Below are positions 1,586-37,695 of a stretch of 64,000 bases of DNA, piece after piece. Each line of letters begins with the position of its first letter. Position 1 is the first letter of the stretch. The translations under genes and the position numbers were made by a program. Under the pieces are notes generated by a model. That model did no database searches. It was not told where the DNA came from and saw only the letters and a program-made list of their open reading frames with translations. Source of the stretch: Victivallaceae bacterium (GTDB taxonomy: Bacteria > Verrucomicrobiota > Lentisphaeria > Victivallales > Victivallaceae); contig JAZSIZ010000060.1 of NCBI GenBank assembly GCA_045534015.1, positions 372 through 64,371 of the forward strand, given 5' to 3'.

Positions 1586-1633
1586 AAGCGAAAATGAAAA
1601 ACGCAGTTTTTTGTGAAATGCAAGGGAAAATTT

Positions 1634-4162
1634 ATGTATTACGGTAAAGAAAAATCTTCTGCGATCTCCTTTCCTTTGGGAGGAATCGGTTCAGGTTGCA
1701 TCGGGCTGGCTGGCAACGGCAGTTTGTGTGACTGGGAAATATTCAATAATTCCAATAAAAATTCCCTGTTGGGTTACACCCATTTCTGCGTGCGTGCCGG
1801 AAAGAAATTCCGGGTATTGCAGGGGGATTGTTTTGAACCGTATACCGGACATTACCGCAAAGGTGATGATGGCAAATACCGCGGCTTCGGCTGGGGCGTG
1901 GAAGAGGGATTGGTTCCCGGATTGCCCCATTTCCGCGATTTTTCTTTCAACGGCAGATTCCCGGTTGCGGAATTGGAATTTTCCGGCGAAGAAGCCGATT
2001 TTCCATTGCAGGCTTCTCTTACGGCATGGAGTCCGTTTATTCCGGGAATGGAAAGGGAATCTTCACTGCCGTGTGCTGTTTTTGAGTACACATTCAAAAA
2101 CATTTCCAGCGAACAAATTGAAACAACCGCAGTCGGCGTACTTGCCAATCCGTGGAATCATGCCGGACACCGTAATTTTATGCGGGCCTCCGGTAATACT
2201 CTGACGGTTTGTGACGGAGAGAAAAATGAGATTTCCCTGACAGTGGTCGATATTCCGGAAAATATTTCATATCAGGAGTATCTGTATCGCGGCTCATGGA
2301 TCGATGCTATGGAAATGTATCTGAATGATCTTGCCAAAGGCGGCAGGTTTGCTCCCCGTAACTATGAGGAAAATCCGGAAGTTGCCCGGTTGGATCATAC
2401 TCTTATGGCAGACCATTTTACTCTTGCTCCCGGTGAAAGCCGGAAAGCTGTATTCATCATTTCATGGCATATCCCGGAAAGAAGCAATTTCTGGAATGCC
2501 AAAGCCGATGAAGAAGCCAGTGCCAATGGCGTGACCAATTCGTGGCGCAATTATTATGCCGCAGAGTGGAGCGATTCAGCAGCTTCAGCTGCAGAATTAA
2601 GCAGCCGCCTGACCGAATTGCGGGAGAAGACCATGCGTTTCGCAGATATTCTGCACTCATCTGATCTTGATCCGGCAATCATTGATGGAGCATCTGCATC
2701 GTTGTCAACACTGCGTTCTCCAACTTGTCTGCGGTTGGAAGATGGTACATTGTACGGTTGGGAAGGCGTCGGCACTTCATGGGGCAGTTGTGAGGGATCG
2801 TGTATCCATGTGTGGAATTATGCTCTGGCTGTACCGTTTCTGTTTCCGGCATTGGAGCGTTCCATGAATGAATCCCATTTGAAGTACAGTGTGGATGAAA
2901 CCGGTGCCGCCCACTTCCGTCTGCATCTGCCATTGGGCATAAAAGCGCAAAAAGATTGGTTCCGGGCATGTGCAGATGGTCAATTCGGCTTGATTATGAA
3001 GTGTTTCCGTGATTGGAAGATTTCCGGAAACGGGAAATGGCTTAAGGAGTATTATCCCATATTGAAAAAGATGATGGAATTTGCCTGGAGCAAAGAAAAT
3101 CCTGATTTCTGGGATCCGGAGCGTTCCGGTATATTGACCGGCAGACAGCATCATACTCTGGATATGGAACTTTACGGACTTAATTCATGGTTGACCGGAT
3201 TTTATCTGGGGGCATTGCAGGCGATGGTGCAGATCGCAGGTTTCTGCGGTGATGAGGATTTTGCCGCAGAGTGCCGGATGATCCTGAAAAAGGGGAAATC
3301 AACAGTAAATGAGTGTTTTAACGGCAGATATTTCTGTCAGAAAATAGATTTGAAAGATCATTCGATCCTCGACCGTTGGGAAGGAGTTGATTTTTTCTAC
3401 TGGAATCCGGAATATAAAGAACTCAAGTATCAGATCGGCGATGGCGTGGAAATCGATGCCTGTCTGGGAGAATTTTTTGCTTCTCTGTACGGTGTCGGCA
3501 GTGTGCTGGATAAGGAAAAAACTGAACTGACTCTGGAAACGATTTACCGGAATAATTTCCGTTGCATGCGTGAACATATCAATCCGTGGCGCAGTTATGC
3601 GGTCAACGATGAAAGCGGGGTGTGCATCTGCACCTGGCTGGCAAATAAACCGGCGATCCCGCTGCCCTATAACAGCGAGATGATGAATGGATTTGAGTGG
3701 GCGTTTGCTTCCCATTTGATGTGGTGTGGTATGACGGATAAGGCAGAAAATATTGCCCGTGCCATCCGGCAGCGTTACGATGGTTCCCGGCGCAATCCGT
3801 GGAATGAATTTGAGTGCGGCAATAACTATGCCCGCAGTATGGCTGCCTACGGATTGATCCTGACGGCGAGCGGATTTATGTTTGATATGAGTAAAAAAAT
3901 GCTCGGCTTCCAACCCCGCAAAGCCGGTATGAAGCGTTGTTTCTGGAGTATCGGCACCGCCTGGGGGGAATTCCGTCAGGATGCTGTATCCTGTTCTCTG
4001 GAAATCGCTGCCGGCAAACTGGAGCTTGATAAACTGCGTTTGCCGGTTTGTCCGCACAAAGTTATGCATAATGGCAGGGAAATAGAATTCACCATGGCTG
4101 GTGATATGATCATTCTGCCGGAAATAACACTGCTTGAAAAAGATGTACTTATTTGCTGCTGA
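1634..4162 (+). CDS. Glycoside hydrolase family 116 (GBA2-type beta-glucosidase/glucosylceramidase-like)
   Basis: N-terminal ISFPLGGIGSGCIGLAGNGSLCDWEIFN is the typical GH116 N-domain signature. Length is about 840 aa. ATG at 1634 follows an aaggga RBS, while the tracked ORF starts at GTG 1613. It ends at TGA 4160-4162. Confidence 0.8.
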   Translation: MYYGKEKSSAISFPLGGIGSGCIGLAGNGSLCDWEIFNNSNKNSLLGYTHFCVRAGKKFRVLQGDCFEPYTGHYRKGDDGKYRGFGWGVEEGLVPGLPHFRDFSFNGRFPVAELEFSGEEADFPLQASLTAWSPFIPGMERESSLPCAVFEYTFKNISSEQIETTAVGVLANPWNHAGHRNFMRASGNTLTVCDGEKNEISLTVVDIPENISYQEYLYRGSWIDAMEMYLNDLAKGGRFAPRNYEENPEVARLDHTLMADHFTLAPGESRKAVFIISWHIPERSNFWNAKADEEASANGVTNSWRNYYAAEWSDSAASAAELSSRLTELREKTMRFADILHSSDLDPAIIDGASASLSTLRSPTCLRLEDGTLYGWEGVGTSWGSCEGSCIHVWNYALAVPFLFPALERSMNESHLKYSVDETGAAHFRLHLPLGIKAQKDWFRACADGQFGLIMKCFRDWKISGNGKWLKEYYPILKKMMEFAWSKENPDFWDPERSGILTGRQHHTLDMELYGLNSWLTGFYLGALQAMVQIAGFCGDEDFAAECRMILKKGKSTVNECFNGRYFCQKIDLKDHSILDRWEGVDFFYWNPEYKELKYQIGDGVEIDACLGEFFASLYGVGSVLDKEKTELTLETIYRNNFRCMREHINPWRSYAVNDESGVCICTWLANKPAIPLPYNSEMMNGFEWAFASHLMWCGMTDKAENIARAIRQRYDGSRRNPWNEFECGNNYARSMAAYGLILTASGFMFDMSKKMLGFQPRKAGMKRCFWSIGTAWGEFRQDAVSCSLEIAAGKLELDKLRLPVCPHKVMHNGREIEFTMAGDMIILPEITLLEKDVLICC

Positions 4163-4534: not shown

Positions 4535-7093
4535 TCAGAATTCAAACAAATATTGACCTCCGCAGATCGTTTGTGATGCCATTTGGGATGTTTCTGGGAA
4601 TACCACTTCTGCCAGGATCCCGGCTGGCAGAGATATTTCCCACAAGATCCGTTTGCCGTCTCTTCGCCAATTGGAAACTATTTTCCCGGCAACTGTTATC
4701 ACAGAAGCATCCACCCGGTTCAGACCAGTCGGGAAATATGGACGCATTTCCACTTTTTTGAAACCGGCTGAATCTGAAGCATTGGCAATACCGGCAAGCC
4801 GGCGGTAAAACCAGACGCTGACCGCTCCCAATGGGACATGAGAAAGAGAACGGGATAAATTTCCGGGAATTTGGCTTTCCCAGATTTCCGGTATAGAACT
4901 CATGCCGCCGGCCAGCATACTGGCGTAGCCCGGATCTCCACCGCGATGCAGCAGTTTCCATATCTCATCAAATTTACCGAAACGGTCAAGTACCTGAATA
5001 AGGCATGTTGTTCCGAGCAGACCGGTTACGATACGATTGTTTTCTGCAAGTTTTTTCAGCATGGTTTGCAAAACGGCATTTGCTGTTCGGGGAGGAAACT
5101 CCATGGAATACAATGCGAATGCCGCCGCCGCGATATGGCACTCTTTATCCACAGTACCGTCGGCTGCGATAAATTTTTCAACAAATGCTCCGGTAACAGC
5201 TTCCGCTTCAGCAGAGTATTTTTCCGCATCCTCATTATAACCGAGCAAATCAGCCATTTTTGACAAAATAGACAGACAAAGCGCATACATGGCAGTGCTG
5301 ATTGATTCAGGCTTTCCTGCACCGACTTTATATCCTTTTTCCCGGCAGAGATGATCTCCCCAGAGAGCAGCAGGCATAATAAAGTTCCTGCTCTGCGTCT
5401 GCCAGAAAGCCATATTTTTGCACAAAACCGGATAGTGTCGTTTGACAATCTGTTTGTCTCCGAAGTGCAGGTAATATTCCCAGAGCATCTGATAATAAGC
5501 ACTCACAAATGGGATGTCCGGTTTTTCCCGCAGAGGGAAGGGGACAATGTGGGGAATATAGCCATCATCCCAGATTGAATCTGCCATGTCATCAAAATAT
5601 TTGGCATAAAACTTGCGCATGTCAAAATGCATCAAAGCTTCCGGAGTTGCCGTCCATGCATCACCAAGCCAGCCCAACCTTTCACAACGCTGGGGACAAT
5701 CTGTCGGCAAACCGTGAAAATTCAATTTCAATGAACGGTTACTGCACCAATGGATCTTATTGATCAAATCATCGGATGAGATAAAACTGCCGGTTTCCTG
5801 ACAATCAGTATGAATGACTTTGGCAACTATATCACTGGTATCCGGTGGATTGCTGCCCTGCCAATTGCTGATTTCTACATAACGGAAACCATGCCAGGCA
5901 AAACGGGGTTCCCATTTTTCGCCAACCGGATCGCCGGAGCAAGTGTAAATGTCTGCAGCAAGGGCGGCTGAATTGCCTCTGGTATCAAGAGTGCCATCAG
6001 GAAAAATCCTTTCCGCAAAGCGCAGTTTGATCTGTTCTCCGGATTTGCCATGTACTTTCAAACATATCCTGCCGGTGATGATCCGGTCAAAATCAGCCAC
6101 CCACAAACCCTGTGCAGGACTGAATATCCTTACCGGTTCAACAGCTTCGATCTCTCTTTCCGGTTCGATGGTCGAAAGGACCAGTTTTCCGCCGGGAGCA
6201 GGAACCTGATGCACAGGCTGCCATTGCACAGGAGTTCGGTTGAATTCCAATCTGGCATCATAATGACAACCGTCATACAGGCAGTTGAATGTTTCAGGAC
6301 CGAAAGCATAGACCCAATCCAGATCAGAAACGATCTCTTTCAGTTTGCCGCCGCCGAAATCCAGTTTCGCCAGAAGACGCATTTTAGGGAATCCGTGCCA
6401 CTGCATCCGCCAATCCCAGTATTTTCTGGCAGGGTTGAACCAACCATTACCCAGAACAGCTTCAAAACAGTTTTTCCCGCGTTGCAGAAAAGGAGTAAGC
6501 TCATACACCATATAACATATCCGTTTCCGGTAAACTGTTCTGGGCGGAGAAAGAATATCATCACCAAGTTTATGCCCATTGATGGATAATTCACCATTGC
6601 CCAAACCGCAGAACGCAGCAAATGCACTGATCGGGAGCTCATCCAAAGTAAATTCACGGCGCAAAAAAGGTGCCCGTGAATCAACTTTAAAGTCAACCTT
6701 TTCATTGAGATAAGCAACATCTTTCATCCTGGAAAGATCCAACTGCACCTCATTTTCCATCCCCGCACCGATCCATAAGGCATTTTCCCAATCGCTTTCT
6801 TTCAAATAACAGCAGGTGATCTTATGAGGAGTACTCCACTCTGTCTCATTTTCCCGGGTATCACGGGTGCGGAGCTGCCAGCTGAATGTATCAAAAGCTG
6901 CCGGCTTTTTGCCGCCGAATACAGCCTGATGATCATCGCTCAACACCCAGCCGGAATCCCAAAGTACAGAATCATCCGCTGCTGTTACTCTTATCTGCCA
7001 TGCCGCCTGTACGGCGGATGTGAAATCATATGTCCAACGGAAAATCAAATCTCCGTCAACATTATACTCCCCGTTCAAAATTCTTAAAGACAT
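4535..7093 (-). CDS. Alpha-L-rhamnosidase, glycoside hydrolase family 78
   Basis: 852 aa. Motif HGLPTDCPQRCERLGWLGDAW matches the GH78 catalytic-domain signature (TDCPxR-ERLGW-GD). RBS agaggga lies upstream of the ATG at 7093. Confidence 0.85.
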   Translation of the reverse strand: MSLRILNGEYNVDGDLIFRWTYDFTSAVQAAWQIRVTAADDSVLWDSGWVLSDDHQAVFGGKKPAAFDTFSWQLRTRDTRENETEWSTPHKITCCYLKESDWENALWIGAGMENEVQLDLSRMKDVAYLNEKVDFKVDSRAPFLRREFTLDELPISAFAAFCGLGNGELSINGHKLGDDILSPPRTVYRKRICYMVYELTPFLQRGKNCFEAVLGNGWFNPARKYWDWRMQWHGFPKMRLLAKLDFGGGKLKEIVSDLDWVYAFGPETFNCLYDGCHYDARLEFNRTPVQWQPVHQVPAPGGKLVLSTIEPEREIEAVEPVRIFSPAQGLWVADFDRIITGRICLKVHGKSGEQIKLRFAERIFPDGTLDTRGNSAALAADIYTCSGDPVGEKWEPRFAWHGFRYVEISNWQGSNPPDTSDIVAKVIHTDCQETGSFISSDDLINKIHWCSNRSLKLNFHGLPTDCPQRCERLGWLGDAWTATPEALMHFDMRKFYAKYFDDMADSIWDDGYIPHIVPFPLREKPDIPFVSAYYQMLWEYYLHFGDKQIVKRHYPVLCKNMAFWQTQSRNFIMPAALWGDHLCREKGYKVGAGKPESISTAMYALCLSILSKMADLLGYNEDAEKYSAEAEAVTGAFVEKFIAADGTVDKECHIAAAAFALYSMEFPPRTANAVLQTMLKKLAENNRIVTGLLGTTCLIQVLDRFGKFDEIWKLLHRGGDPGYASMLAGGMSSIPEIWESQIPGNLSRSLSHVPLGAVSVWFYRRLAGIANASDSAGFKKVEMRPYFPTGLNRVDASVITVAGKIVSNWRRDGKRILWEISLPAGILAEVVFPETSQMASQTICGGQYLFEF

Positions 7094-7110: not shown

Positions 7111-8997
7111 TTATCTGGCTGAATCAAGATACTGCGGAAGCTTTCCTGCGGAAAGGACTCCTTCGGTACCTTTGCCGAGTGTAAATTCTGCAGTATCGGC
7201 AATATCCATACTGATTGTATAAGTTGAGCGTACTCCGGGAGTGTGTTTGATTTTTACGACCCTGGGTTCTTCAACACTGCCGGATGCAACAACTTTACCG
7301 GATTCATCCATGATCAGATACGATACCGGGCGGCGCAGTTTCCCTGCAATTTTGAATTCAAACTCATCTGCATTTTTCAAAACCGCAAAGCGGGCGTGGC
7401 ACTCCGTCAGCAATAATTTACTGCCTGAATAACCGAATGCTCCGGTATAGTCCAGTCTTATTTCTCCACCGGAAGCAGAAATCGCAGCATAAGCATTGCC
7501 TCCGGGGGAAACAGCTTGCTGAAGATGTTTGACTTTTTTTGAAAGCGTACCATCGAAACAATTCACTCCGGTCATGTCACTGAATTTGAGCTGAATATCT
7601 CTTCTTACAACAACATAATCTGCTGTCAGTGTACCGGATCCACAGAGAATAACCGTATACATTCCGCGCAACAGGATTTTTCCCTTGAAACCGGATTGAT
7701 CATCCGGAGTCTTAACGGCGAATTTTTTGGGATTTGCGATCGCCGGGACAAAATATTGCCGGTTGCGGTTGGCTATTTCTGCAGAGATCTCCTGCATGCG
7801 GTTGTTAAGGTCAAAGTTTTTTTTGCCGCTTGATGTGATCAGTGTAATATTGCCGACAATGGTTGAAATTTGTGCATCTGTCCAACTTTTAAAAGCAATG
7901 ACCTCTTTTGAATCGCTGTTTATCTGCAGATTTCCGAAGTTTATATTGCCGATTTTACCGCCGGTCATCCCTTCTATCGCCAGTATGATTGGAATCGAAT
8001 CTTTTCCGCTCTTAATGGAACAGTCAGTAAAACTCAGTGCCACGGTATCCAGATTGTCACGGATTAATAATTCAGCGTATTTGTTGTTTTCAAAACGGCA
8101 TTTTTCAAATTTTACAAAACCTCTTGGCGGAGTAACATTTTCTCTTTTGGTACGGTAAAAACTGTTAAATACAGTCATACCTTCCCGGTTATCGGAAATA
8201 ACGCAATTGCGCACAGTGATGGATTGCGCCGGGGCATCGCCTTCCAGATAAACTGTATAAAATTCAATCCCGGCTCCCTGATTGCCGGAAATAACGCAAT
8301 TTTCAATCAGACAATTGACCAGACGCTGGGGGGCAGGGGTGGAGTTCGGTTCAAAGTCGATTCCGGCGGCCGGAGCTGTTCCGGAGGTGTTGAGGATACG
8401 ACAACGGCGGATAATCAAATCTTCCGCTGAAATAACGCTGATTCCCTGGCGGTGGTGGCTGTCGATGATCAAATCTTCAAGGATCACATTTTTGCAGTAT
8501 TTCTGATCTTTTGTTGTGCCGAGATAGATGCCGTCGCCGCCGCTTTCCCGCAGTTCCAGATTGGCGATACGCACATTGGAAACGCCGTACATACCGATCA
8601 TGTGGCGATATTCAGAAGGCTGATAGCGTTTCGGATCCTGATAATCTGATTTGCGCATTTGCAATACAACTTTGCCTTTCCCCAACATGGTGATGTTGCG
8701 CAGTCCATTTGCTCTGAACAAAAATTCGCCGAGACTGCGGAAACGCCCTTCAGCGGCGACCACTCTGACTCCATCCTCAAAGATCAAGGTCAGATCGCTC
8801 CGCAGATAGATCTGACGGTGCAGAATCAGAGGATACCCCGGATTATCCACGATAACAGTTCCCGCTCCTGAATTGATCGCAGACTGCAACGCTGTACCGG
8901 CATCATTTTTTTCAGGTTTGAAATCGCTTAATTTTACAGTGGCTGCTGACAAAAGCAATGCGGCAAAAGAAAAAACAAGGTACAGAATTTTTTTCAT
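7111..8997 (-). CDS. Secreted right-handed parallel beta-helix protein (pectin-lyase fold), probable polysaccharide hydrolase or lyase
   Basis: Signal peptide MKKILYLVFSFAALLLSAA. Repetitive beta-helix turns are visible (GGDGIYLG, HHRQGISV, AAGIDFEPN, NQGAGIEF). It lies 17 nt upstream of the GH78 gene. Confidence 0.6.
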   Translation of the reverse strand: MKKILYLVFSFAALLLSAATVKLSDFKPEKNDAGTALQSAINSGAGTVIVDNPGYPLILHRQIYLRSDLTLIFEDGVRVVAAEGRFRSLGEFLFRANGLRNITMLGKGKVVLQMRKSDYQDPKRYQPSEYRHMIGMYGVSNVRIANLELRESGGDGIYLGTTKDQKYCKNVILEDLIIDSHHRQGISVISAEDLIIRRCRILNTSGTAPAAGIDFEPNSTPAPQRLVNCLIENCVISGNQGAGIEFYTVYLEGDAPAQSITVRNCVISDNREGMTVFNSFYRTKRENVTPPRGFVKFEKCRFENNKYAELLIRDNLDTVALSFTDCSIKSGKDSIPIILAIEGMTGGKIGNINFGNLQINSDSKEVIAFKSWTDAQISTIVGNITLITSSGKKNFDLNNRMQEISAEIANRNRQYFVPAIANPKKFAVKTPDDQSGFKGKILLRGMYTVILCGSGTLTADYVVVRRDIQLKFSDMTGVNCFDGTLSKKVKHLQQAVSPGGNAYAAISASGGEIRLDYTGAFGYSGSKLLLTECHARFAVLKNADEFEFKIAGKLRRPVSYLIMDESGKVVASGSVEEPRVVKIKHTPGVRSTYTISMDIADTAEFTLGKGTEGVLSAGKLPQYLDSAR

Positions 8998-9018: not shown

Positions 9019-9777
9019 TCAGTTGTTGTCAGCATATTTGAAATAGTTGCCAGGATAGTCGCTGTATTTGTATGAATTTTTACTTCCCGCCAGCATATCT
9101 TTGTGAGTTTCCAGAGTTCTCACATGACCGTCATAATAGAGCATGTTAATCTTGTCTCTGTGCCAGACCGTATGTAAACCGCCATCCGGCATCACCTTGA
9201 GGTAGCTTGAAACTTCCGGATATGAACCGGCATAATTTACTATGGTATAATTGTCACCGAGCAAACTTATATTACTGTTGCCGTCTTTCAGACGCATTCT
9301 GCTGACTTCATGTTCAGGATTGCGCATGGAATATGAGGAATACCAGTTGCCGCTGGATATTTTGAAATCTTTTGCGAAATTCGGCGGCATGGTCAAACCT
9401 CCTGCCGGACAATAGAAAAGTTGAGGTTCTGACAGAAAATCCCCGGCATAAAGGTGTCCGGTAGTCCGGTATCTGGGGGTTCCGTTTTCCGTATTCTTGA
9501 TGTAATAACGGCAGGCGTAACGCCACCATGAATCAACTTCATACGGGATATAATCATCAAAAGCATCCGCATAAAGGGCGAATCCCAAACCGAATTGTTT
9601 GAGCTGATTGGTGCAACTGATCGTCCGTCCCCGTTCTCTGGCTGAATTAAGTGCCGGCAGCAGAATCGCTGCCAGAATAGCGATAATTGCAATGACAACC
9701 AGCAACTCAATGAGAGTAAATTGTTTGACAGATCGACGGCAGAAACTTTCGGATTTTTTCATAACAAGACCTTTCAT
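9019..9777 (-). CDS. Prepilin-type N-terminal cleavage/methylation protein with H-X9-DG motif (pseudopilin-like, DUF1559 type)
   Basis: Contains [32 protein letters not shown], the class III signal and hydrophobic helix. C-terminal [12 protein letters not shown] is a canonical H-X9-DG motif. The start ATG overlaps the LacI stop (ATGA at 9774-9777). Confidence 0.8.
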
Positions 9778-10835
9778 TGTTGTTTTTGGGTATTTTTATC
9801 CAGACGGCAATAAGATATTCCCGGGACCTCGATACAGCATGGTTCATTATCAAAAGCCCGCTCAATAAGATGGCTGCAGATAACCGGCACATCAAAACCC
9901 ACAGAAGATATCGGGATCGGTGATAATCTGCTGGCACTTGAATTGAAAAATCCACCGATAACCAGATCCACGCCGATTTTTTTTCCATGAGCAATAAATG
10001 CCGCAGCAGCTCCCAGAGCCGCCGCATCAGAGGGGAATATCACTGCTTGCAGATCCGGATAAAGAGTCAGCATTTTTGCTGCGATCGCTTTGCCGGATCG
10101 GTGATCTGTTGCCTGAATGTCTGTGTCTGTTGATGGGGGAGTGTCGCAGAGATAAAAAATATTACGCAGGATTTCTTCCGCTTCTTCAGGAGGATATATT
10201 TTTCTGATCAGCTCTGCCTCCATGCGTTCCGGCTCGCTGTTTCCGGAATACATCACATATTTTAATTTTCGGAAACCGGATTTGACAAACTGCCGGATCA
10301 ATTCAAGGCGTGCTTCGCCCGGGCAATTGACCACTCGGCGGGAAAAGAGATACCCCATGCCGATAAATGGACAACCGGCTTTTTTTATTTCCTGTTCAAT
10401 TTTGATGTAACCGACCGGATCACCGATCATTATAAAACTTTCTGCACCATGACTCAATTGTTCTCTGATGCGTTTCAGGTTTTCCTCCTCTTCGTAACCG
10501 AGAATCATTATATTGGTTGAAAAACCTTTGCGGTTGAGAGTATCAACGACCTCGATCAACAGTTCATTGAATGGTTCACGCTGACGAAGCTGCGGTGATG
10601 AAACGACCACTCCGACACAATGAATCGTGTCTCCATGCATCATTTTATAGCCGACATTCTGTCTCCATCCCAGTTCTTCAGCCAACTGCTTGACCTTTTC
10701 TACCGTACTTTCCGAAATAAAGCGGCTGTCCTGACCGGTCAAAATGCGGTGAACTGTTGTGACCGACAAATCCGCAGCTTTGGCAACATCACGCAGAGAA
10801 CAACGTTTTTTGGTTTTTGAAGCTTCTTTTTTCAT
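9774..10835 (-). CDS. LacI family transcriptional regulator
   Basis: N-terminal [25 protein letters not shown] followed by a periplasmic-binding-protein-like sugar-binding fold. It is the first gene of the operon. Confidence 0.85.
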
Positions 10836-10889: not shown

Positions 10890-10918
10890 AATATAGCATC
10901 TGAATCGTTGATTGTCAA
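10890..10918 (-). promoter_or_regulatory. Putative promoter of the LacI-pseudopilin-beta-helix-GH78 operon (TTGACA, 17 nt, TATATT)
   Basis: The reverse complement reads ttgaca atcaacgattcagatgc tatatt. Confidence 0.5.
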
Positions 10919-14860: not shown

Positions 14861-15874
14861 TCAGAGGTCGATAAAACCGTCAAATTGCAGCGGAATGACC
14901 TGATTCCAGGTGTTTTCTGCGTGATCGAATCCGCCCGGACCATCGGCAGCGGCGGCAAACAGTGCAATCGGAATTCCTGCCGCATCAAAGAGCAGCTGCG
15001 GGCGTTCAAGTGAACCGAGTGTAACTGAATTTCCGTTATCCAGTTCAATCGTTCTTGAGTAAGCTTTTCCCTGAAACAGCCACTGGCTGCCATCGGTGGA
15101 AACAAAGTGCGCCCCGGCGTGTTTTTCTCCTGTGAGGTTGCCGGAAATATCTTTGGCAATCATTTCCAGATTTTCGCCATTATGCCAGACAAAGGGATCT
15201 TCAATGGCAAGATCGTGTATCGCCGGAGTGTCGCCCCGCAAATACGGTCCTGCCGGAGTTTCCGCCACTGCCAGACCGGTATTTATACCGCCGCCGGGGA
15301 TGTTGGAGCGGTAATAGAGAAAAATTCTGCCGCCCGGCAATACACAGGCGGCGGGATTGGTGACTATGGTGCAGTCAAATTTTTCCGGACGGGCTTCCAG
15401 AACCGGTTCCGGAAGAAATTCCCATGGACCGGCAGGGGATTTGCTCCGTGCCAGACCGATACGGATCTGATCGTAACATCTGAAAACCAGTGTGGTGTCT
15501 TCTTTTATCTTATCCGCCGGAGTGGCTTCGCCCTGATAGGTGGAAGCTATATAGTACATCAAGTACCCGCCTTTGTATTTGATCACCGTCGGATTGTGTG
15601 CCATCATGCCGTTCCATTTATCCGGATCGCCTGACGGCTGAAGTTTTTCAATAAAACGGTACGGACCATTGAGTGTTTCCGAAAAAGTGTGGATTATTTC
15701 AGAAAACAGCACATAACCGTAGAGCATCGGGTAATCTTTGCGCCAGCATGAGGCATAAAGGTGGTAACCTTTGCCGGGTTCTTCCACCGCCGAACCGCAC
15801 CACACCCATTTATCCGCTTCCCGGTAGCCTCCTTGTGCCGGAGCAGGCAATAATCTGAAAGAGCTTTTCCGCAT
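14861..15874 (-). CDS. Probable five-bladed beta-propeller glycoside hydrolase (GH43/GH117-like)
   Basis: 337 aa. The pattern WVWCGSAV..GKGYHLY..., HNPTVIKYKGGYLMYY, AGPW and LERPQLLF resembles GH43-clan enzymes. Family assignment is uncertain. Confidence 0.45.
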   Translation of the reverse strand: MRKSSFRLLPAPAQGGYREADKWVWCGSAVEEPGKGYHLYASCWRKDYPMLYGYVLFSEIIHTFSETLNGPYRFIEKLQPSGDPDKWNGMMAHNPTVIKYKGGYLMYYIASTYQGEATPADKIKEDTTLVFRCYDQIRIGLARSKSPAGPWEFLPEPVLEARPEKFDCTIVTNPAACVLPGGRIFLYYRSNIPGGGINTGLAVAETPAGPYLRGDTPAIHDLAIEDPFVWHNGENLEMIAKDISGNLTGEKHAGAHFVSTDGSQWLFQGKAYSRTIELDNGNSVTLGSLERPQLLFDAAGIPIALFAAAADGPGGFDHAENTWNQVIPLQFDGFIDL

Positions 15875-15915
15875 GAACCGTTTTCCTGTTTTATATGTAG
15901 TGAATGTTGACTGTA

Positions 15916-15960
15916 GAAATCTGCCGGGACTGTCTTTTTTTTTCAGTTCCGGCAGATTTC
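15916..15960 (-). other. Strong intercistronic hairpin (17-bp stem, one mismatch)
   Basis: gaaatctgccgggactg (15916-15932) pairs with cagttccggcagatttc (15944-15960) across an 11-nt T/A-rich loop. No U-tract follows in the transcribed (minus) direction. Confidence 0.5.
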
Positions 15961-15973
15961 CCGGAGTTGCTGA

Positions 15974-17599
15974 TTATTTCAGCACAGCAGAACCGGCAAC
16001 CGGGATCACGCTGCCGTCTGCCGGATTGCATCCTGCGTCGACTGCATTGCAGCACGGAACTTTGATCGCCCGGTCGGAAAGGTTGCAGACAATGGTTTTT
16101 TTACCGTCATTTTTGATGCACTGATCAAATTTTCCGGCATCGCAGATAACAACCAGACGGCTGTTTTCATTTTCCACGATTGCCCCTTCAATATCCGACC
16201 AGCCGAAGACAAATCTCCATTCGCCGTGGTTGATCAATTCTCTGTTGGCATTGTACATATCGATGTAGTAACGGATGATCTGTTTTTCCGTATCGGTCAA
16301 ACGGGTGAGATCCATTGACAGCATCGGAACCCCGAGCAGCATCGCCATCATGTGACGGGCGACATTTTCGGTGGTTTCGCCAAAGGGCCAGTAAGCCGGA
16401 TCGGCGTGAGCAGGTCCGAGATTGCCGATGGAAAGACGGATTTCCACCATTCTGCCGAAGTTGCTCATCCAGTTGAAAGGCACATCACCGGCACGGAACT
16501 GGGTTCCGTATTTCAACATGCCGGGTATGGCGTAGCTCTGGCGGAATTCGATCAGTGCATCCGGATTATCCTCTTTCAATCCGCCGGTCAGATCGGCGAT
16601 GAGTTTTTCCGTCGCCCGGGCATTGGGGGCATCGACATTGGGAGGAACAATATCAAGGAAGTCGATTTTCAAGCCGTCAAGTCCGTTATCTTTGGCAAGA
16701 GCGCGCAATTTTTTGACCAACGGAGCGAAATCAGCTTTGTTGACATCCATTTTATCATACCCCTCAATGGGGGTATTGTTGGTCATGCCCGGATTATTCT
16801 GGTAGAGTTTGGATTTGAATCCCCAGAGGTGCGGGGCGCACCAGACCATATATTTCATGCCGAGCGACTGGATACGTTTGACATGATTTTTGAAATCGGG
16901 GAATTTTTTCTCCGAAACATCCCAGTCGCCGATCATCTCATACCAGCTGACAATGGTCTGCGGAGAAACCCGTTTCATATCATCATAGCACCAGCCGTCA
17001 TCGACGATCAAAGTGGTGAAGCCGAGGTCTTTGGCGATGGGACAGGTTTTTTCCACGAAGTCGGCAGTCACCGCACCGTGAACGGCATACCAGGTGCAGT
17101 AGACCGGATCGGTGGCAGCTGCCGGATAGGTGTAAGCGGGCAGAGCCAATGCTTTGCGCCAGTCGGCAACCGCATCCTGCCAATCAATGCTGCGGGCATC
17201 GAGGATAATGTCGAAAGAGCCGGTTTCTTCGCTTAAAGCGATGGTACAGGTAATGTCATAAGTTCCCTTTTCCTGATTGACTTCAAAACGGATACGGGTG
17301 TCATCCTGCAAATCGGTCGAGGCAAAAGTGCCCTTGTTGATTCCGGCGGTGTTGAATGCCGCTACGACCGGAATGTTTTTCTGCGCTCCGCTGTCGAGTT
17401 CCAGAACCCACGGCAGATTGCGTTTTTCCGGACCGGCAACCAGAGAATTGAGCCATACTTCATGGACATCGACCAGTGAGATGCTGGTGGTGATGACCAC
17501 TTTGTCTGCTCCTTTTTCCGGGGTTGCGGAAATTCTGGTGTAATCTCCGGTTTTGGCAAATTCCTGCGTTGTGCCATTGGAGTAAGTAAATTTGATCAT
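15974..17599 (-). CDS. Clan GH-D alpha-galactosidase-like glycoside hydrolase (GH36/GH27 type)
   Basis: Contains LIVDDGW, LKIDFLD (K-x-D nucleophile context) and FRAGD. N-terminal beta-sandwich precedes a TIM barrel. 541 aa. Confidence 0.55.
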   Translation of the reverse strand: MIKFTYSNGTTQEFAKTGDYTRISATPEKGADKVVITTSISLVDVHEVWLNSLVAGPEKRNLPWVLELDSGAQKNIPVVAAFNTAGINKGTFASTDLQDDTRIRFEVNQEKGTYDITCTIALSEETGSFDIILDARSIDWQDAVADWRKALALPAYTYPAAATDPVYCTWYAVHGAVTADFVEKTCPIAKDLGFTTLIVDDGWCYDDMKRVSPQTIVSWYEMIGDWDVSEKKFPDFKNHVKRIQSLGMKYMVWCAPHLWGFKSKLYQNNPGMTNNTPIEGYDKMDVNKADFAPLVKKLRALAKDNGLDGLKIDFLDIVPPNVDAPNARATEKLIADLTGGLKEDNPDALIEFRQSYAIPGMLKYGTQFRAGDVPFNWMSNFGRMVEIRLSIGNLGPAHADPAYWPFGETTENVARHMMAMLLGVPMLSMDLTRLTDTEKQIIRYYIDMYNANRELINHGEWRFVFGWSDIEGAIVENENSRLVVICDAGKFDQCIKNDGKKTIVCNLSDRAIKVPCCNAVDAGCNPADGSVIPVAGSAVLK

Positions 17600-17621
17600 A
17601 GCATATACCCTTTCTTTTGGT

Positions 17622-18716
17622 TTACAGAATCTTTTTCAAAACTTTTTTCAAACCTTTGGCAATAAAGTAAAATCCCAGATCAGTTTGATGGATGCCGTCA
17701 ACGGAAAATTCGTGCCAGTCTTTTCCGGCGATTTTGCCGCCGTTGATGAAATAAAGATTTTTGTCCCCAGCCTTGCGCAGACGGCGGATAAGTCCCTGCT
17801 GGAAGCGGACGGATGCCGCCTGTTTCGGAGCCTGTATTTCCGGAGAGCCGGATATGGGGATCTCTCTATTCATTCTGACACTGGACATGACCAGAATCGG
17901 AGTTTCCGGATTTTTCTTCCGGAGAATGCTGATGAAATTTTCCAGAGTCTCCCGTATGCCTTCAGCTTGAGCGTTGGGTTCATAATCCAGAATGAATGCT
18001 GCCGGATTTTCGATTTTTGTCAGATATTCAGCCACGACCGGTTCGCCTCTGCCGCTGCCGGAAAATCCGTAATTCAGCACCGGCTGATTGAAATATCTGG
18101 AAAGGATCGCTGTATAAGCCATCCCCGGGCGGGATGCACATCCTCCTTGCGTGATGCTGGTTCCGTAAACGATGATCGGCTGTTCACTGGCAAAGGGGGC
18201 AGGGGGGAGGATTTGGGCATCCTCATCGATGCCGATTTCCAGAGAAAGCACACCGCTGTACAACGGCATGTTGATGGTATAGTTTTCCATTTTACCGGAT
18301 AATTCAAAGGTGTGCAGCGCACTGGTGTACTCATCGCTGCCGGCTTTACTGCGGCTGCCGCCGAGCATGGCAGCTTTACCCGGTTCGCCGATGTAGAGGT
18401 CAAAACCGCAGCCGCCGGTATCTGGCATGTGATCGGCGTGGCTGGATTCGTGCAGCTTTACTCTGATCCAGAGTCTTCTGGTGTTGCTGCGGAAATCCAG
18501 TCTGCCGCCTGAAGTATGATATGCCTGTACCTCAACTCCATGTGGCAAATCCTGCGTCAGCGGAAAACGGCGCAGAGTTTTTCCCGGTTCATGAAAGACA
18601 AATCCGGTCAGACGGATCGGGGGGGTATCAAAGGGGATGAATTTAAGCCCGTCCTGTGATTTATTCGGCACAGCCATTGCCGGATCGAATTTTGCGGCAG
18701 AATTATTCATGGTCAT
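17622..18716 (-). CDS. SGNH/GDSL hydrolase with GxDLY-type N-terminal domain (carbohydrate esterase-like)
   Basis: GFDLY motif in the N-terminal beta-domain. Block I is VYGTSITQGG (Ser nucleophile). Block V is DGIHQTD (Asp-x-x-His). Confidence 0.65.
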   Translation of the reverse strand: MTMNNSAAKFDPAMAVPNKSQDGLKFIPFDTPPIRLTGFVFHEPGKTLRRFPLTQDLPHGVEVQAYHTSGGRLDFRSNTRRLWIRVKLHESSHADHMPDTGGCGFDLYIGEPGKAAMLGGSRSKAGSDEYTSALHTFELSGKMENYTINMPLYSGVLSLEIGIDEDAQILPPAPFASEQPIIVYGTSITQGGCASRPGMAYTAILSRYFNQPVLNYGFSGSGRGEPVVAEYLTKIENPAAFILDYEPNAQAEGIRETLENFISILRKKNPETPILVMSSVRMNREIPISGSPEIQAPKQAASVRFQQGLIRRLRKAGDKNLYFINGGKIAGKDWHEFSVDGIHQTDLGFYFIAKGLKKVLKKIL

Positions 18717-28003: not shown

Positions 28004-29245
28004 ATGGCATTTACCAAAGCTCAAAAGTCGTGGCTGGCTTATGATCCGGCTATTTCAGCGTATGCAATGATCGTGAGAACGGTGGTCGCTCCTATCTTTC
28101 TCACCTTTGCCGCAGGCTCTTATTTAGGCGAAGATAAATGTACCGAATACTGGGGGTATACTTGCAGCATTGCCGGATTGGTTGCCGGAGCGATCTCGGT
28201 TTTCTGCGGCCCATGGATCGATGCCAAACGGAAAAAGGTGCAGGCTGTGGCTCTTTTTACCATTCTCGGTGTGCTTTCCACGCTTGCCTATATTCCGTTG
28301 AACTATTTTAATGCCGGCAGTGCCGCCCCTTATATCGTCATGGGGATAAGTTTTGTCGGCATGCTCAGTTTTATGGGGTCCAACAGTTTCTACGATTCGC
28401 TGCTGGTCAGCATTACCGGGAAATCTGAACGTGATAAAGTTTCCAGCTGGGGGTTTGCTCTCGGTTACGGCGGTGCGCTGGTTTCGTTTCTGCTCTGTCT
28501 GCCATTGATGTTCATTGCTGATCAGAAGTTCTTTTTCCCCGGAGCGTTTCTGATTGCCGCATTGTGGTGGGCGGCAGGTTCTCTGCCGCTTTTCAAAAAT
28601 GTGCGGGAGAAACATGATGGCGAAATGCAAAAGAGTGTGAATTTGAAAGACACTCTGAAATATATCTGGGAGAACAAGAATATTCTCATCTTTCTGGCTG
28701 CCTACTTCCTTTATATTGACGGAGTAGGTACGATTATGATGCAGGCTACTTTGATTGCCACATCGCTGAAAATAGATACGCTCTTTATCATGGTGACTAT
28801 CCTTGCTCTGCAGATCATAGGTTTGCCTTTTACGCTGCTTTTCGGCAAACTGGCGGATCGTTTTTCTGCCAAGGCGATGATTTATGTTGCCATCGCAATT
28901 TATATAAGTATTGCGGTTATTGTCACAGTGATGTCCTTTTTGCATGATGCAGGCATCCGGGTGATCCTTTTCTATGTCGCCGCCGGATTGATCGGCACGG
29001 CACAGGGCGGTATCCAGTCTTTGAGCCGCTCTCTTTTCAGTAAGATCATTCCCCAGCACCGTGCGGCAGAACTTTTTGCCGTATATAATATTTTCGGGCG
29101 GTTCACTACGATCGTCGGACCGTTGCTGATGATTCCCATCGCTGTCCATGTCTGGGGCAAAGCTGAACTGGGTATTTCGTTGATGATCCTGCCCTTTATT
29201 TGCGGTGCTCTGCTTCTCAGTAAAGTGAAAGTTGCGGAAAATTGA
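28004..29245 (+). CDS. MFS transporter (UMF1/Atg22-like)
   Basis: About 12 predicted hydrophobic helices. The N-terminus AYDPAISAYAMIVRTVVAPIF is typical of the UMF1 family. Confidence 0.7.
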   Translation: MAFTKAQKSWLAYDPAISAYAMIVRTVVAPIFLTFAAGSYLGEDKCTEYWGYTCSIAGLVAGAISVFCGPWIDAKRKKVQAVALFTILGVLSTLAYIPLNYFNAGSAAPYIVMGISFVGMLSFMGSNSFYDSLLVSITGKSERDKVSSWGFALGYGGALVSFLLCLPLMFIADQKFFFPGAFLIAALWWAAGSLPLFKNVREKHDGEMQKSVNLKDTLKYIWENKNILIFLAAYFLYIDGVGTIMMQATLIATSLKIDTLFIMVTILALQIIGLPFTLLFGKLADRFSAKAMIYVAIAIYISIAVIVTVMSFLHDAGIRVILFYVAAGLIGTAQGGIQSLSRSLFSKIIPQHRAAELFAVYNIFGRFTTIVGPLLMIPIAVHVWGKAELGISLMILPFICGALLLSKVKVAEN

Positions 29246-30258
29246 TCCTGTCCTATATTCTTAAACGCCTGTTGCTGGCTCTGTTTACGCTGCTGATAAT
29301 TCTCTTTGTCAGCTACGTACTTTTGCGTTTGGCTCCCGGGGATCCGACCCGCAGTGACATGCTTTCCGGAGAGACCGGAACCATGAACAGTGAACAGAGT
29401 GTGTTGAAAGAAAACAATGCGCTGAAAGAAAAACTCAATCTGGATAAACCGGTGATGACCGGATTTGTTATTTGGTTGAAATCAGTGATCCTGCATGGGG
29501 ATTTCGGCGAATCTGCCGCTGTTGAACCGGGGAGAAAAGTCACGGAGATGATCGGCGAAAGATTGCCATTGACAATTAAAATAAATGTGCTGGCAATTCT
29601 GGTTACTTATACTCTTGCCATATTTATCGGAGTTACAACAGCCGCCCGCGCCGGCAGCTTCTATGACCGGGCGGTGGAAGTACTGCTTTTTACCCTTTAT
29701 TCACTGCCGGTGATGTGGGTCGGATTGCTGCTTCAGTCACTTTTGTGTGAAGGCGGTAAATATCCGCTGTTCCCATTGTCGGGCAATAGTCCGGATAACT
29801 CACTTTCTCTTCCGCTGTTTGAATATCTGTGGCAGGAGTTGCGCTATCTGGCTCTACCGGTGCTGTGCCTTTCCTATGCCGGATTGGCGGGGTTGTCCCG
29901 CTATACCCGGGGCAGTGTATTGCAGAATATAAGATCCGATTTTATCCGTACCGCCCATGCCAAAGGTCTTTATGGTCCGGTGGTATTGTGGAAACACGCA
30001 TTCGGTAATGCGCTTATTACCATGATCACTCTTTTCAGCGGTCTGCTGCCTTCGCTGATTTCCGGCAGTGTACTGGTTGAATATATTTTCAATCTTCCCG
30101 GGATGGGAACGCTGTCTTTGCAGGCACTTTCCAGCCGGGACTATCCATTGCAGATGGCATTGTTTTCCTTTGCCGGAGCATTGACTTTGGCGGGGATTTT
30201 TATCTGTGACCTCTTATATATGGCAGCCGATCCCAGAATCAGGTTGACAAAACGGTAA
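29242..30258 (+). CDS. ABC transporter permease, OppB/DppB family (orphan: no partner subunits adjacent)
   Basis: (M)ILSYILKRLLLALFTLLII...LAPGDP N-terminus and a BPD_transp_1 core. The TTG start overlaps the MFS stop (TTGA). Confidence 0.75.
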   Translation: MILSYILKRLLLALFTLLIILFVSYVLLRLAPGDPTRSDMLSGETGTMNSEQSVLKENNALKEKLNLDKPVMTGFVIWLKSVILHGDFGESAAVEPGRKVTEMIGERLPLTIKINVLAILVTYTLAIFIGVTTAARAGSFYDRAVEVLLFTLYSLPVMWVGLLLQSLLCEGGKYPLFPLSGNSPDNSLSLPLFEYLWQELRYLALPVLCLSYAGLAGLSRYTRGSVLQNIRSDFIRTAHAKGLYGPVVLWKHAFGNALITMITLFSGLLPSLISGSVLVEYIFNLPGMGTLSLQALSSRDYPLQMALFSFAGALTLAGIFICDLLYMAADPRIRLTKR

Positions 30259-32348: not shown

Positions 32349-32969
32349 TTATTCCGCCGTATATTGGAACTTGAAAGGTTCTGCATCATACAGGCTGATT
32401 TTTCCATCCTGATCAAAAGTGTAGCATTGGCGGATGAATGTGGTGTCATCATCGGAGTAGCTGTATTTGACCAGCATAACTTTGCCGTTTTCTACGAGAG
32501 CTTCCAGATTCTGTGCTTCAAACGCATTAAAGGTATATTTTTTCTGCTGATTTGAAACAAAGATCCCGACATCGGAAAGTCCGGCGAATCTGCCGTTCCA
32601 CACTTTGATATTGACAAAGATGTAATCCGGCTTCTTATCTCCATTCAAATCAGCTTTGTAACATGCTGCCATGGTTTCGCAAAGCTCATCGGGCAGGGTG
32701 AAAATGAAGTTATCCACCCGCACTTTATGACTGTATTGAGCTTCAATATCGGGCAGGGCGGTTGCTTCGGTATTTTTTACGACACCATTGATAAATGTCA
32801 TCTTCTGTGCCGGCAAAAATGGATAATTTAACTCGGTTGCATTGGTAAAAGGTTTATTTGCCGGACGCATCGGAAGTGCGGCGGCGGCAAGTGAACAGCA
32901 CAGAACAGCACCGGAGAGAATAGTTTTCATCCGGGAAAAATTTATAAGATAAGATTTTGCAGCAGCCAT
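32349..32969 (-). CDS. Hypothetical secreted protein
   Basis: Strong RBS AAGGAGA 8 nt before the ATG at 32969. Hydrophobic signal ILSGAVLCCSLAAAA. Contains an FG-GAP-like DLNGDKKPDYIF segment. Confidence 0.5.
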   Translation of the reverse strand: MAAAKSYLINFSRMKTILSGAVLCCSLAAAALPMRPANKPFTNATELNYPFLPAQKMTFINGVVKNTEATALPDIEAQYSHKVRVDNFIFTLPDELCETMAACYKADLNGDKKPDYIFVNIKVWNGRFAGLSDVGIFVSNQQKKYTFNAFEAQNLEALVENGKVMLVKYSYSDDDTTFIRQCYTFDQDGKISLYDAEPFKFQYTAE

Positions 32970-37595: not shown

Positions 37596-37621
37596 AAAGA
37601 CCTCCTTTGTTAATTGCAATA

Positions 37622-37650
37622 AATATACTACAAAAACAAGGATAAAAAAA
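37622..37650 (-). promoter_or_regulatory. Putative activator-dependent promoter (poor -35 TTTTTT, 17 nt, TATATT) of the CBM-like/970-aa/pseudopilin operon
   Basis: -10 tatatt is the reverse complement of 37622-37627. The -35 position is a T-run immediately flanked by the direct repeats at 37653-37689. Confidence 0.35.
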
Positions 37651-37652
37651 TA

Positions 37653-37689
37653 ACAAAAACGGCAATGTTCAGGACAAAATCGGCAAATG
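37653..37689 (-). promoter_or_regulatory. Tandem direct repeats with 21-nt period, CATTTGCCGATTTTGT / CATTGCCGTTTTTGT (candidate AraC-family binding sites)
   Basis: Plus-strand copies are acaaaaacggcaatg (37653-37667) and acaaaatcggcaaatg (37674-37689). The distal copy is identical over 16 nt to 38590-38605 in the AraC gene's own promoter. Confidence 0.5.
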
Positions 37690-37695
37690 TGTTTT

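Follow-up and report, generated by a model that had tools for sequence, protein, structure and literature searches.

Introduction

Proteins of the DUF1559 family, which occur in Planctomycetes, Verrucomicrobia and Lentisphaerae, carry a prepilin-type stem and an H-x9-(D)G-H hairpin and have expanded into many paralogues. One report gives 41-100 members per genome, with 91-100 in T. immobilis, where they are present in membrane fractions and their genes are 'often flanked by' signal-peptide genes (PMC8567305); another gives 68 paralogues in P. limnophila, the biggest paralogue family in that planctomycete genome, two of them essential (PMC10632474). Here we describe three prepilin-type, DUF1559-like proteins, designated pilin1, pilin2 and pilin3, encoded within 64,000 nucleotides (the window; positions 372 to 64,371 of the forward strand of contig JAZSIZ010000060.1, assembly GCA_045534015.1) from a Victivallaceae bacterium, the closest relative of which is GCA_054270175.1 and the relatives of which belong to Victivallales/Lentisphaeria. 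An earlier reading of the sequence (the original prediction) had assigned each protein to its own glycan operon and suggested a substrate-specific surface fibre or binding module; its remark that the family is massively expanded in bacteria of the Planctomycetes-Verrucomicrobia-Chlamydiae (PVC) group, without a known function, agrees with these paralogue counts.

The family and its expansion are already known; what is new is that pilin subunits occur singly, each private to its operon, and not as part of a pilus or secretion locus. Compared with described DUF1559/H-X9-DG proteins, the window members are shorter (244-266 aa), match the PF07596 profile in part and score below the cutoff of TIGR04294 or are missed by it, and the cassette in which a regulator gene is followed by a pilin gene and a gene for a secreted glycan enzyme is seen only in Lentisphaerota loci. 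In the non-subscription portion of the DUF1559 literature, we found no description of such a regulator-pilin-exoenzyme cassette in Lentisphaerota, nor of a link to operons of carbohydrate-active enzymes (CAZymes).

Several better characterized systems resemble these loci in part. GspG/PulG of the Klebsiella Pul secreton shares with the window proteins the class III signal, F1, E5, P22 and GspG-like first 45-65 residues, and a sugar signal controls the Pul genes jointly with the gene for their secreted glycanase. However, the window proteins score 29-37 bits against a cutoff of 88.85, have an unrelated head and come as many alternative subunits, and each window operon holds a lone pilin gene, without ATPase, platform, secretin, peptidase or minor pseudopilins. 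Modular and adhesive pilins, such as S. sanguinis PilB (PMC8179133), the Akkermansiaceae MUL2 pilus, a type IV-like pilus locus with a proposed role in adhesion to fucose-rich glycans (PMC13174399), and the xylan-induced pili of Caldicellulosiruptor (bioRxiv 10.1101/614800), bind through regions outside the stem and are linked to polysaccharides. Each of these systems consists of one locus with its own machinery and a few pilins, whereas here one subunit is dispersed into each substrate operon and carries no recognisable grafted binding module. In Planctomycetes, pili-like fibres have been seen to bind dextran labelled with gold (PMC5394234), and extracellular filaments induced by polysaccharides in Lentisphaerae, which their authors read as filamentous phages, provide a lead rather than evidence (PMC11361711).

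Minor pilins associated with PilC/PilY1 (PMC13533445) are likewise encoded beside a large Sec-exported non-pilin protein that might be carried on the filament, but the partners described here have no evident conserved C-terminal strand, and the pilins keep E5 and look like major pilins rather than GspK/PilK-type ones. SusD-like proteins of Bacteroidota polysaccharide utilization loci are also present as one divergent paralogue per sugar-regulated locus and perform the glycan capture that we propose here; they have no sequence or fold relation to the window proteins, are anchored as lipoproteins rather than by a prepilin stem, and pair with a SusC-like partner that is absent here, the likeness being one of analogy only. 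The Sulfolobus 'bindosome' similarly places prepilin-type (class III) signals on sugar-acquisition proteins, but those are true solute-binding proteins of the ATP-binding cassette (ABC) type encoded beside transporters, and neither feature is found here. Against this background, we tentatively view each of the three proteins as a subunit that belongs to one operon but is interchangeable within a shared type IV filament, which may be a pseudopilus of type II secretion or a pilus; the head of the subunit would capture the glycan of its operon.

Results

An invariant stem in three paralogues

The genes and their landmarks are the following.

9019-9777, minus strand: pilin1, prepilin-type/DUF1559-like pseudopilin, 252 aa (translation, family scans, AlphaFold2 (AF2) model)
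33139-33873, minus strand: pilin2, paralogue, 244 aa (translation, family scans)
55862-56662, minus strand: pilin3, paralogue, 266 aa (translation, family scans, AF2 model, profile-profile alignment)
9625-9720, minus strand: stem block of pilin1 (exact 32 residues)
33766-33861, minus strand: stem block of pilin2 (exact 32 residues)
56525-56620, minus strand: stem block of pilin3 (exact 32 residues)
9124-9162, minus strand: H-X9-DG-H of pilin1 (sequence reading)
33277-33315, minus strand: H-X9-AG-H of pilin2 (sequence reading)
55991-56029, minus strand: H-X9-GG-H of pilin3 (sequence reading)

The three open reading frames (ORFs) lie where the original prediction had located them, all on the minus strand, which it had left out, and the 32-residue block that it had reported is exact in all three. 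The DNA encoding the block differs between any two copies at 24-26 of 96 nt, all changes being synonymous; the proportion of synonymous differences (pS) is 0.85-0.93, that is, saturated over ~28 synonymous sites, and nonsynonymous changes number 0. Because synonymous sites are saturated with no amino-acid change, the block is best explained by an old duplication followed by absolute purifying selection; recent gene conversion, already discounted in the original prediction, is ruled out by these pS values. No further FTLIE-type ORFs were found in the six frames of the window.

The block is not a special trait of this genome or of these three genes. Of the 8,000 candidates scored in a full-length search with pilin1, more than 7,900 were significant, by way of the stem; many are named "DUF1559 domain-containing protein [Lentisphaeria bacterium]", and the same 32 residues are present verbatim in dozens of otherwise unrelated homologues. 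Across thousands of prepilin-type DUF1559 proteins of Lentisphaeria, the consensus stem is this very block, and therefore nothing about it is specific to these three. In alignments of 76 and 60 members, F1, T2, L3, I4, E5, the hydrophobic run, P22 and the following 17 residues are invariant.

All three proteins start with a short basic leader (residues 1-19 in pilin1, with Gln at position -1), followed by F+1, E+5, a run of ~20-21 hydrophobic residues, P+22 and the conserved alpha-1C. The prepilin-type model TIGR02532 is passed by all three (22.4-22.8 bits versus a cutoff of 16.3), and PF07963 by pilin2 and pilin3 (29.3 and 32.8 versus 21.2), with pilin1 just below at 20.6. The assignment to the DUF1559/H-X9-DG family in the original prediction stands in part: PF07596 (DUF1559, now SBP_bac_10) gives 27.5, 34.2 and 31.9 bits against a gathering score of 23.3, but these matches cover only profile positions 2-37 of 268, corresponding to alpha-1C, and leave the domain body unmatched, and the H-X9-DG model TIGR04294 scores pilin1 at 16.6 versus a cutoff of 19 and is silent for pilin2 and pilin3. 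The first 45-65 residues resemble the GspG, PilA and ComGC models, all far below the equivalog cutoffs; GspG is the best-scoring pilin-type model for the N-terminus in two of the three proteins, although its equivalog TIGR01710 gives 28.9-37.1 bits versus 88.85 and aligns only over model positions 2-45 or 2-65. Comparison of the family profile with solved pilins and GspG (6xxd, 8pfb, 5wda) matched the helix only and placed F1 on residue 1 of the mature pilins.

The residue preceding the predicted cleavage site deviates from the canonical Gly, being Gln in pilin1 (codon 9721-9723), Ser in pilin2 (33862-33864) and Ser in pilin3 (56621-56623). Among 120 close homologues, this position is most often R (28), S (25), G (16), A (13) or C (9); in a broader set of PVC loci, it is G in 29 cases, A in 18 and S in 10.

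Beyond the stem, the C-terminal parts are strongly diverged, as had been claimed: BLAST between the paralogues aligns the first ~70 residues only. The end motifs read H-X9-DG in pilin1, H-X9-AG in pilin2 and H-X9-GG in pilin3, again in agreement with the original prediction, with a further H in each, and at the profile level all three fall into one RH-x4-N-x4-(D)GH column block. Profile-profile alignment of the pilin1 and pilin3 families extends over 217 columns and includes common head landmarks, namely W..L, C-P-S, S-Y-G-x-N, a conserved D and R-H-N-x3-N-x-L-x2-D-G-H-V. It follows that homology between the three proteins is not confined to the stem but runs from end to end; they form a short Lentisphaerota branch of the prepilin/DUF1559 family.

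A separate observation concerns the leader-coding region of relatives. Many family members carry there a palindromic element of ~165-183 nt, inserted between two copies of the FTLIELLV-coding 24-mer; it is present in 22 of 204 fetched homologues and absent from the window. Copies in three related loci (loci fetched from other genomes are designated by L and a number) are located as follows.

L001 10067-10231; L097 9037-9201; L099 1-70: palindromic leader element

The element contains a ~25-bp hairpin (GGGGAGAGGGGAAAAACCTCTTTTC-CCGT-GAAAAGAAGTTTTTCCCCTCT.CCC) and TTGACA, and copies in two different paralogues of two genomes are identical at 152 of 165 nt. Because L099 reads the same DNA in another frame, selection on the element acts on DNA. 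It resembles a small mobile or repeat element, for which the prepilin leader, predicted to be cleaved off, may serve as a safe harbour.

Diverged heads under purifying selection

AF2 models of pilin1 (pLDDT 84, pTM 0.79) and pilin3 (pLDDT 74, pTM 0.75) each predict a 51-residue helix (residues 22-72 and 17-67, respectively) followed by a small mixed alpha/beta head, with the same order of elements and a beta-hairpin bearing the H-x9-(D/G)G-H motif. Foldseek searches of the Protein Data Bank (PDB) with the two models gave best E values of 0.7 and 1.3, the latter for the PilE helix, and no pilin head. A lectin-like fold, which the original prediction had suggested looking for, was not found in pilin1 or pilin3, the two of the three that were modelled, nor did either model match a carbohydrate-binding module (CBM), SusD or a solute-binding fold in the PDB. 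Lectin, CBM and solute-binding folds were accordingly rejected as candidates for the heads, with nothing below E 0.7 and a PDB profile search matching the stem only, and the "SBP" in the family name is not borne out for these proteins.

These results bear on the possibility that the proteins are not polymerised at all, but resemble the bindosome in that the prepilin signal serves, after cleavage, as an inner-membrane anchor, with the head acting as a periplasmic binder of, or chaperone for, oligosaccharides or the enzymes of its operon. The Pfam name SBP_bac_10 places the family among solute-binding proteins, and planctomycete members fractionate with membranes (PMC8567305). However, apart from the missing solute-binding fold, a two-lobe binding protein would need a larger head, and the strict conservation of E5, P22 and the whole of alpha-1 suits filament packing rather than a mere anchor. 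We consider this explanation highly unlikely; its bearing on sugar uptake is taken up below.

When the pilin1 head was searched alone (residues 73-252) against 1.84 billion representative proteins, only 14 clusters reached E<=1e-3. In single-sequence comparisons, each head is close to a family of its own. Between orthologues, the ratio of nonsynonymous to synonymous divergence (dN/dS) is 0.111 for pilin1 and 0.124 for pilin3, similar to the neighbouring enzymes. Thus, by these sequence measures, the heads are under purifying selection between orthologues, while being recognisable between paralogues only at the profile level. Certain head residues are nevertheless invariant throughout the family, namely Cys...Cys-Pro, S-Y-G and R-H-x4-N-x4-D-G-H. 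The heads contain on average 6.8% Tyr, 2.2% Trp and 7.5% Asn; Tyr+Trp amounts to 9.0%, versus 5.1% in the other window proteins, the mean Asn content of which is 4.6%. In the pilin1 head, Tyr+Trp reaches 13.7%, and just one other window protein gets to 8.9%. This composition fits a binding surface, for either carbohydrate or protein, although it is suggestive only.

The combination of an identical stem, which makes all copies interchangeable, with head positions invariant across the family would also suit ordinary major pseudopilins devoid of substrate or cargo specificity, one copy of which in each inducible operon would raise the pseudopilin supply as the demand for secretion grows, while the heads of these surface-exposed proteins diversify under, for example, phage or grazer pressure. 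Yet orthologous heads are as purified as the enzymes (dN/dS 0.11-0.12), and dosage alone hardly explains hundreds of distinct, individually conserved heads, which makes such a role quite unlikely; a further observation in its favour, the low conservation of the pilins relative to their neighbours, is considered with operon 2.

A regulator-pilin-exoenzyme cassette in related loci

To place the window genes in context, we compared pilin neighbourhoods in 80 loci, with one genome per species and our own ORF calls; this is a sample of loci rather than of whole genomes. The regulator test used 84 loci, that is, these 80 plus the window, L001, L083 and L085, and a locally built hidden Markov model of regulators; signal peptides in the loci were called with a crude heuristic, and genes at least 4 positions away from the pilin served as the distal set.

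Sugar regulators of the LacI/GntR type are strongly linked to the pilin genes: 12 of 19 are located at position -1 of the pilin (odds ratio 23, p=8e-10), all 12 in Lentisphaerota/Victivallales loci. Consistently, Pfam detects Peripla_BP_3, with GntR or LacI DNA-binding domains, in 14 of 46 upstream neighbours, whereas 110 distal control genes belong to housekeeping families and include no Peripla_BP_3-type family with at least 2 hits. On the other side of the pilin, the gene directly downstream on the same strand encodes a signal peptide in 26 of 46 cases versus 100 of 426 distal genes (odds ratio 4.2, p=6e-6); among upstream neighbours, signal peptides occur in 6 of 54. Pfam domains of the downstream set comprise Beta_helix, Pect-lyase_RHGA_epim, Laminin_G_3, Hepar_II_III_C, DUF4962, Alpha_L_fucos, Sulfatase, DUF4838 and the glycoside hydrolase (GH) families GH16 and GH78.

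The order of genes is conserved as well, in related bacteria from gut and sediment. A LacI gene followed by the pilin, a beta-helix protein and GH78 recurs in L001 (73% identity), and the same series ending in GH4 in L085 (46% identity); L090 has regulator, pilin, GH4 and beta-helix, and L083 and L087 have LacI, an unknown gene that may intervene, pilin and DUF4838. In L093, the regulator overlaps the pilin by 4 nt and is followed by an unknown gene, GH39 and a fucosidase, whereas L092 (68% identity) resembles operon 3 of the window, with DUF4434, pilin, an unk259-like gene and a DUF4838-like gene. The LacI-pilin arrangement of operon 1 thus recurs in L001, L083, L085 and L093. Further family members in these loci adjoin GH20, a pectate-lyase-like protein, GH123 or a GDSL/DUF6259 protein, and genes F and E of the type II secretion system are present in a few of the loci. 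Embedding of the pilins in sugar-regulated operons, as originally proposed, is therefore supported by synteny kept in orthologues and by regulators enriched at -1, and the association with glycan genes is seen as enrichment of regulators and secreted neighbours in the fetched loci, a sample that falls short of the genome-wide scale on which it had been framed.

The enrichment of signal peptides directly downstream raises the possibility that, once the subunit has entered a pseudopilus of type II secretion or a pilus, the head handles protein rather than glycan, docking the secreted protein or proteins of its own operon and either pushing them through a secretin or holding them on the filament. 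Such a cargo-specific secretion or display adaptor has precedents in minor pilins that hold PilC/PilY1, with tip proteins attached to minor pilins by beta-strand addition (PMC13533445), and in the Pul secreton, which is co-induced with pullulanase. The downstream neighbours are large exo-enzymes (beta-helix, pectate-lyase-like, heparinase, DUF4962, fucosidase, sulfatase, GH16 and DUF4838), the gene downstream encodes a signal peptide in 3 of 3 window operons, with a 21-nt spacing in two, the N-terminus scores best against GspG in the two proteins mentioned above, and secretion-system genes are up-regulated on laminarin in Lentisphaerae strains (PMC11361711). Several observations point the other way. 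Members of the pilin1 orthologue group all keep the regulator and the pilin together, yet the enzyme encoded downstream is of the beta-helix class in some and of the DUF4838 class in others, a switch that does not follow the head tree; beta-helix-linked pilins form one orthologue group, whereas DUF4838-linked pilins do not. Co-diversification of head and partner was therefore rejected, as was a common C-terminal tag, no shared C-terminal peptide being visible in the partners. Moreover, in some operons the pilin is immediately followed by a cytoplasmic enzyme (GH4) or by no gene at all. An adaptor of this kind is only slightly less likely than a glycan-handling head.

Operon 1

Operon 1 comprises pilin1 and the following features.

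10890-10918, minus strand: sigma-70-like promoter match, TTGACA-17-TATATT, 11/12, candidate start of the operon 1 transcript (best consensus match upstream of LacI)
9774-10835, minus strand: LacI-family regulator (Pfam LacI and Peripla_BP_3)
7111-8997, minus strand: right-handed beta-helix protein, 628 aa, signal peptide, candidate extracellular depolymerase (Pfam Beta_helix)
4535-7093, minus strand: GH78 alpha-L-rhamnosidase without signal peptide, last gene of the operon (family scan)

The promoter match is one of consensus only, the total number of such matches in the sequence being not above that in shuffles. The stop of the LacI gene overlaps the start of pilin1 by 4 nt, and the gene for the beta-helix protein lies 21 nt downstream of pilin1. 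The beta-helix protein matches rhamnogalacturonidase NF049898 weakly and also matches a phage tail-fibre beta-helix. Together, the operon points to a rhamnose-containing, pectin-type glycan.

Operon 2 and its mosaic divergence

Operon 2 contains pilin2 and the following genes.

37696-38553, minus strand: AraC-family regulator at the head of the operon (family scan)
36768-37727, minus strand: unk319, signal peptide, likely start near 37595 (no family match)
33893-36805, minus strand: unk970, signal peptide (no family match)
32349-32969, minus strand: unk206, small signal-peptide protein 169 nt downstream of pilin2 (ORF reading)

The end of unk970 is separated from pilin2 by 19 nt. Unk206 is outside the conserved unit, being not present after the pilin2 orthologue in L097. 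The operon 2 proteins received no annotation from Pfam, NCBIfam or, for unk970, a PDB sequence search. Because this operon offers just an AraC regulator and proteins without family match, its designation as a glycan operon is tentative. Orthologues of pilin2 show 60-96% identity, and the 60%-identical relative heads an operon with two GH78 genes.

In L097, from a metagenomic relative with a pilin2 orthologue of 75% identity, the order AraC, unknown, unknown, pilin is kept, but divergence along the operon is uneven. Over ~3 kb (37600-34620), including unk319 and most of unk970, the window and L097 are 96-100% identical at the nucleotide level, whereas AraC, the 3' end of unk970 and pilin2 are at 65-80%. 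The synonymous divergence (dS) is 0.045 for unk319, 0.21 for unk970 and 1.74 for AraC and is saturated for pilin2; protein identities are 97% for unk319, 93% for unk970 and 75% for pilin2. Operon 3 displays a milder form of the same mosaic divergence relative to L092. These sequence comparisons suggest that the enzyme genes recently recombined or were transferred separately from the pilin.

The mosaic bears on two of the explanations introduced above. In two of the three operons, orthologous loci differ more in the pilin than in any other protein, which had seemed to favour a mere supply of pseudopilins. However, the lower pilin identity in operons 2 and 3 reflects recent exchange of the neighbouring enzyme genes rather than fast pilin evolution; the notion that the pilin evolves faster than its neighbours, apparent from the identities, was discarded on the basis of dS. 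Near-identical partners (unk319, unk970) beside a clearly diverged pilin2, with very different synonymous divergences, count against the adaptor: because enzyme genes are exchangeable without their pilin, a strict lock-and-key relationship between pilin and cargo is weakened.

Operon 3

Operon 3 runs in the order GH2, DUF4434, pilin3, unk259, DUF4838 and GH36-like/NPCBM, with the following features in addition to pilin3.

60255-61253, plus strand: LacI-family regulator, divergent from operon 3, probable start near 60357 (family scan)
57746-60310, minus strand: GH2 beta-mannosidase-like protein without signal peptide (family scan)
56693-57637, minus strand: DUF4434 protein without signal peptide (closest solved relative 4h41, 'putative alpha-L-fucosidase')
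55061-55840, minus strand: unk259, signal peptide, 21 nt downstream of pilin3 (BLAST)
51893-55039, minus strand: DUF4838 protein, signal peptide, C-terminal domain at 51968-52660 (family scan)
49452-52058, minus strand: GH36-like alpha-galactosidase with NPCBM domain, probable start 51896 (family scan)
49385-49417, minus strand: terminator-like hairpin of 13 pairs followed by a T run, likely end of operon 3 (sequence scan)

Unk259 reproduces, as a separate protein, the C-terminal domain of the neighbouring DUF4838 protein (41% identity over 231 aa); this domain has no match in Pfam, NCBIfam or PDB. The 172-nt gap between the GH36-like gene and AXE1 (49279-49452) holds both the terminator-like hairpin and a promoter-like site (49398-49370), and AXE1-Ldh_2 is therefore probably a unit separate from the pilin3 operon. 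The enzymes of operon 3 point to a mannoside/galactoside-type glycan.

Junctions, secretion signals and transport in the window

The picture of operons that each contain their own co-directional regulator (LacI, AraC, LacI) applies to operons 1 and 2, whereas the third LacI gene is divergent on the plus strand. Translational coupling or gaps below 31 nt are found at several junctions (4-nt overlap, 19 nt and 21 nt), but not between pilin2 and the next ORF (169 nt), GH2 and DUF4434 (108 nt) or GH36 and AXE1 (172 nt). Signal peptides in the window, which were judged by eye, are likewise present in some of the neighbours said to be secreted (the beta-helix protein, unk970, unk319, unk206, unk259, DUF4838 and AXE1), but not in GH78, GH2, DUF4434 or Ldh_2. 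Machinery for pili or type II secretion is encoded in no sizeable ORF of the window, as the original prediction had noted.

The three operons contain no SusD/RagB Pfam match and no TonB-dependent receptor, and no SusC-like or ABC partner adjoins the pilins. ABC transporter genes are lacking from the three operons and from related cassettes; the only transporters in the window, a major facilitator superfamily protein (28004-29245) and an ABC permease (29242-30258), belong to an unrelated plus-strand cluster. Because GH78 (4535-7093), GH2 and DUF4434 (56693-60310) have no signal peptide, import of oligosaccharides is implied, and no operon provides a transporter for it. The uptake required by these intracellular enzymes would suit a periplasmic, bindosome-like binder, but the lack of ABC transporter genes in the operons and related cassettes does not.

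Two other clusters of glycan-type genes (14861-18716 and 1613-4162; GH43-like, GH36-like, SGNH esterase and GH116) have neither signal peptide nor pilin, which fits pilins accompanying operons with exported proteins. At 43827-46657, a sulfatase-domain protein with a long hydrophobic N-terminus, in a layout like that of lipoteichoic acid synthase, is followed by a membrane acyltransferase (Acyl_transf_3); this is an envelope-modification pair unrelated to the pilins. Rfam and tRNA scans of the window returned nothing.

Discussion

We favour, as a tentative interpretation, operon-specific subunits of a shared type IV filament. The assembly machine would be encoded elsewhere in the genome, and the invariant N-terminus would let every paralogue be processed, anchored in the inner membrane and polymerised by that one machine, beside any other paralogue; the stem being kept identical, the paralogues would thus fit one machine and one filament. 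The ~180-residue head would be the operon-specific part, conserved among orthologues and unrecognisably different among paralogues. Upon sensing of its sugar by LacI, GntR or AraC, the matching subunit would be made together with the secreted proteins of the operon and join the filament, where the head, rich in Tyr, Trp and Asn, may capture or retain the glycan of that operon at the cell surface or in the periplasm. This would be the binding step that SusD-type proteins provide in Bacteroidota, and a SusD-like substrate-binding fibre is, by analogy, plausible. A glycan-handling head is rated most likely because the linkage to sugar regulators is conserved, the composition is binding-like and PVC bacteria possess polysaccharide-binding fibres.

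A number of observations weigh against this interpretation. The non-Gly residue at -1, most commonly Arg in close Lentisphaeria homologues, makes cleavage uncertain and may mean that the peptidase has an unusual specificity or that the leader is not removed. Neither structural model has a predicted lectin, CBM, SusD or solute-binding fold, and the invariant head residues would point to a function common to all paralogues rather than to a substrate-specific site. The operons come without machinery, transporter or outer-membrane partner, and operon 2, in which no glycan enzyme is recognisable, is not demonstrably glycan-related. Finally, the downstream enrichment of signal peptides fits a protein-handling role equally well; on balance, a glycan-binding head is slightly favoured over the handling of co-encoded secreted enzymes.

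PVC polysaccharide degraders capture, import or secrete around glycans without Sus-type outer-membrane systems. The cassette of sugar regulator, private pilin and secreted enzyme provides pairs of substrate and gene, which turns a blank in annotation into a matter for direct experiment. A broader idea, which we regard as unlikely at present, is that of a programmable heteropolymeric fibre, with dozens to hundreds of stem-identical, head-diverse pilins, one per sugar-responsive operon, in Lentisphaerota and perhaps in PVC bacteria at large. If true, the surface of a shared filament would be re-composed according to which glycans are sensed, such a fibre would be the glycan-capture device of bacteria that have no SusC/SusD, and it would explain both the expansion of DUF1559 and the dextran-binding fibres of Planctomycetes.

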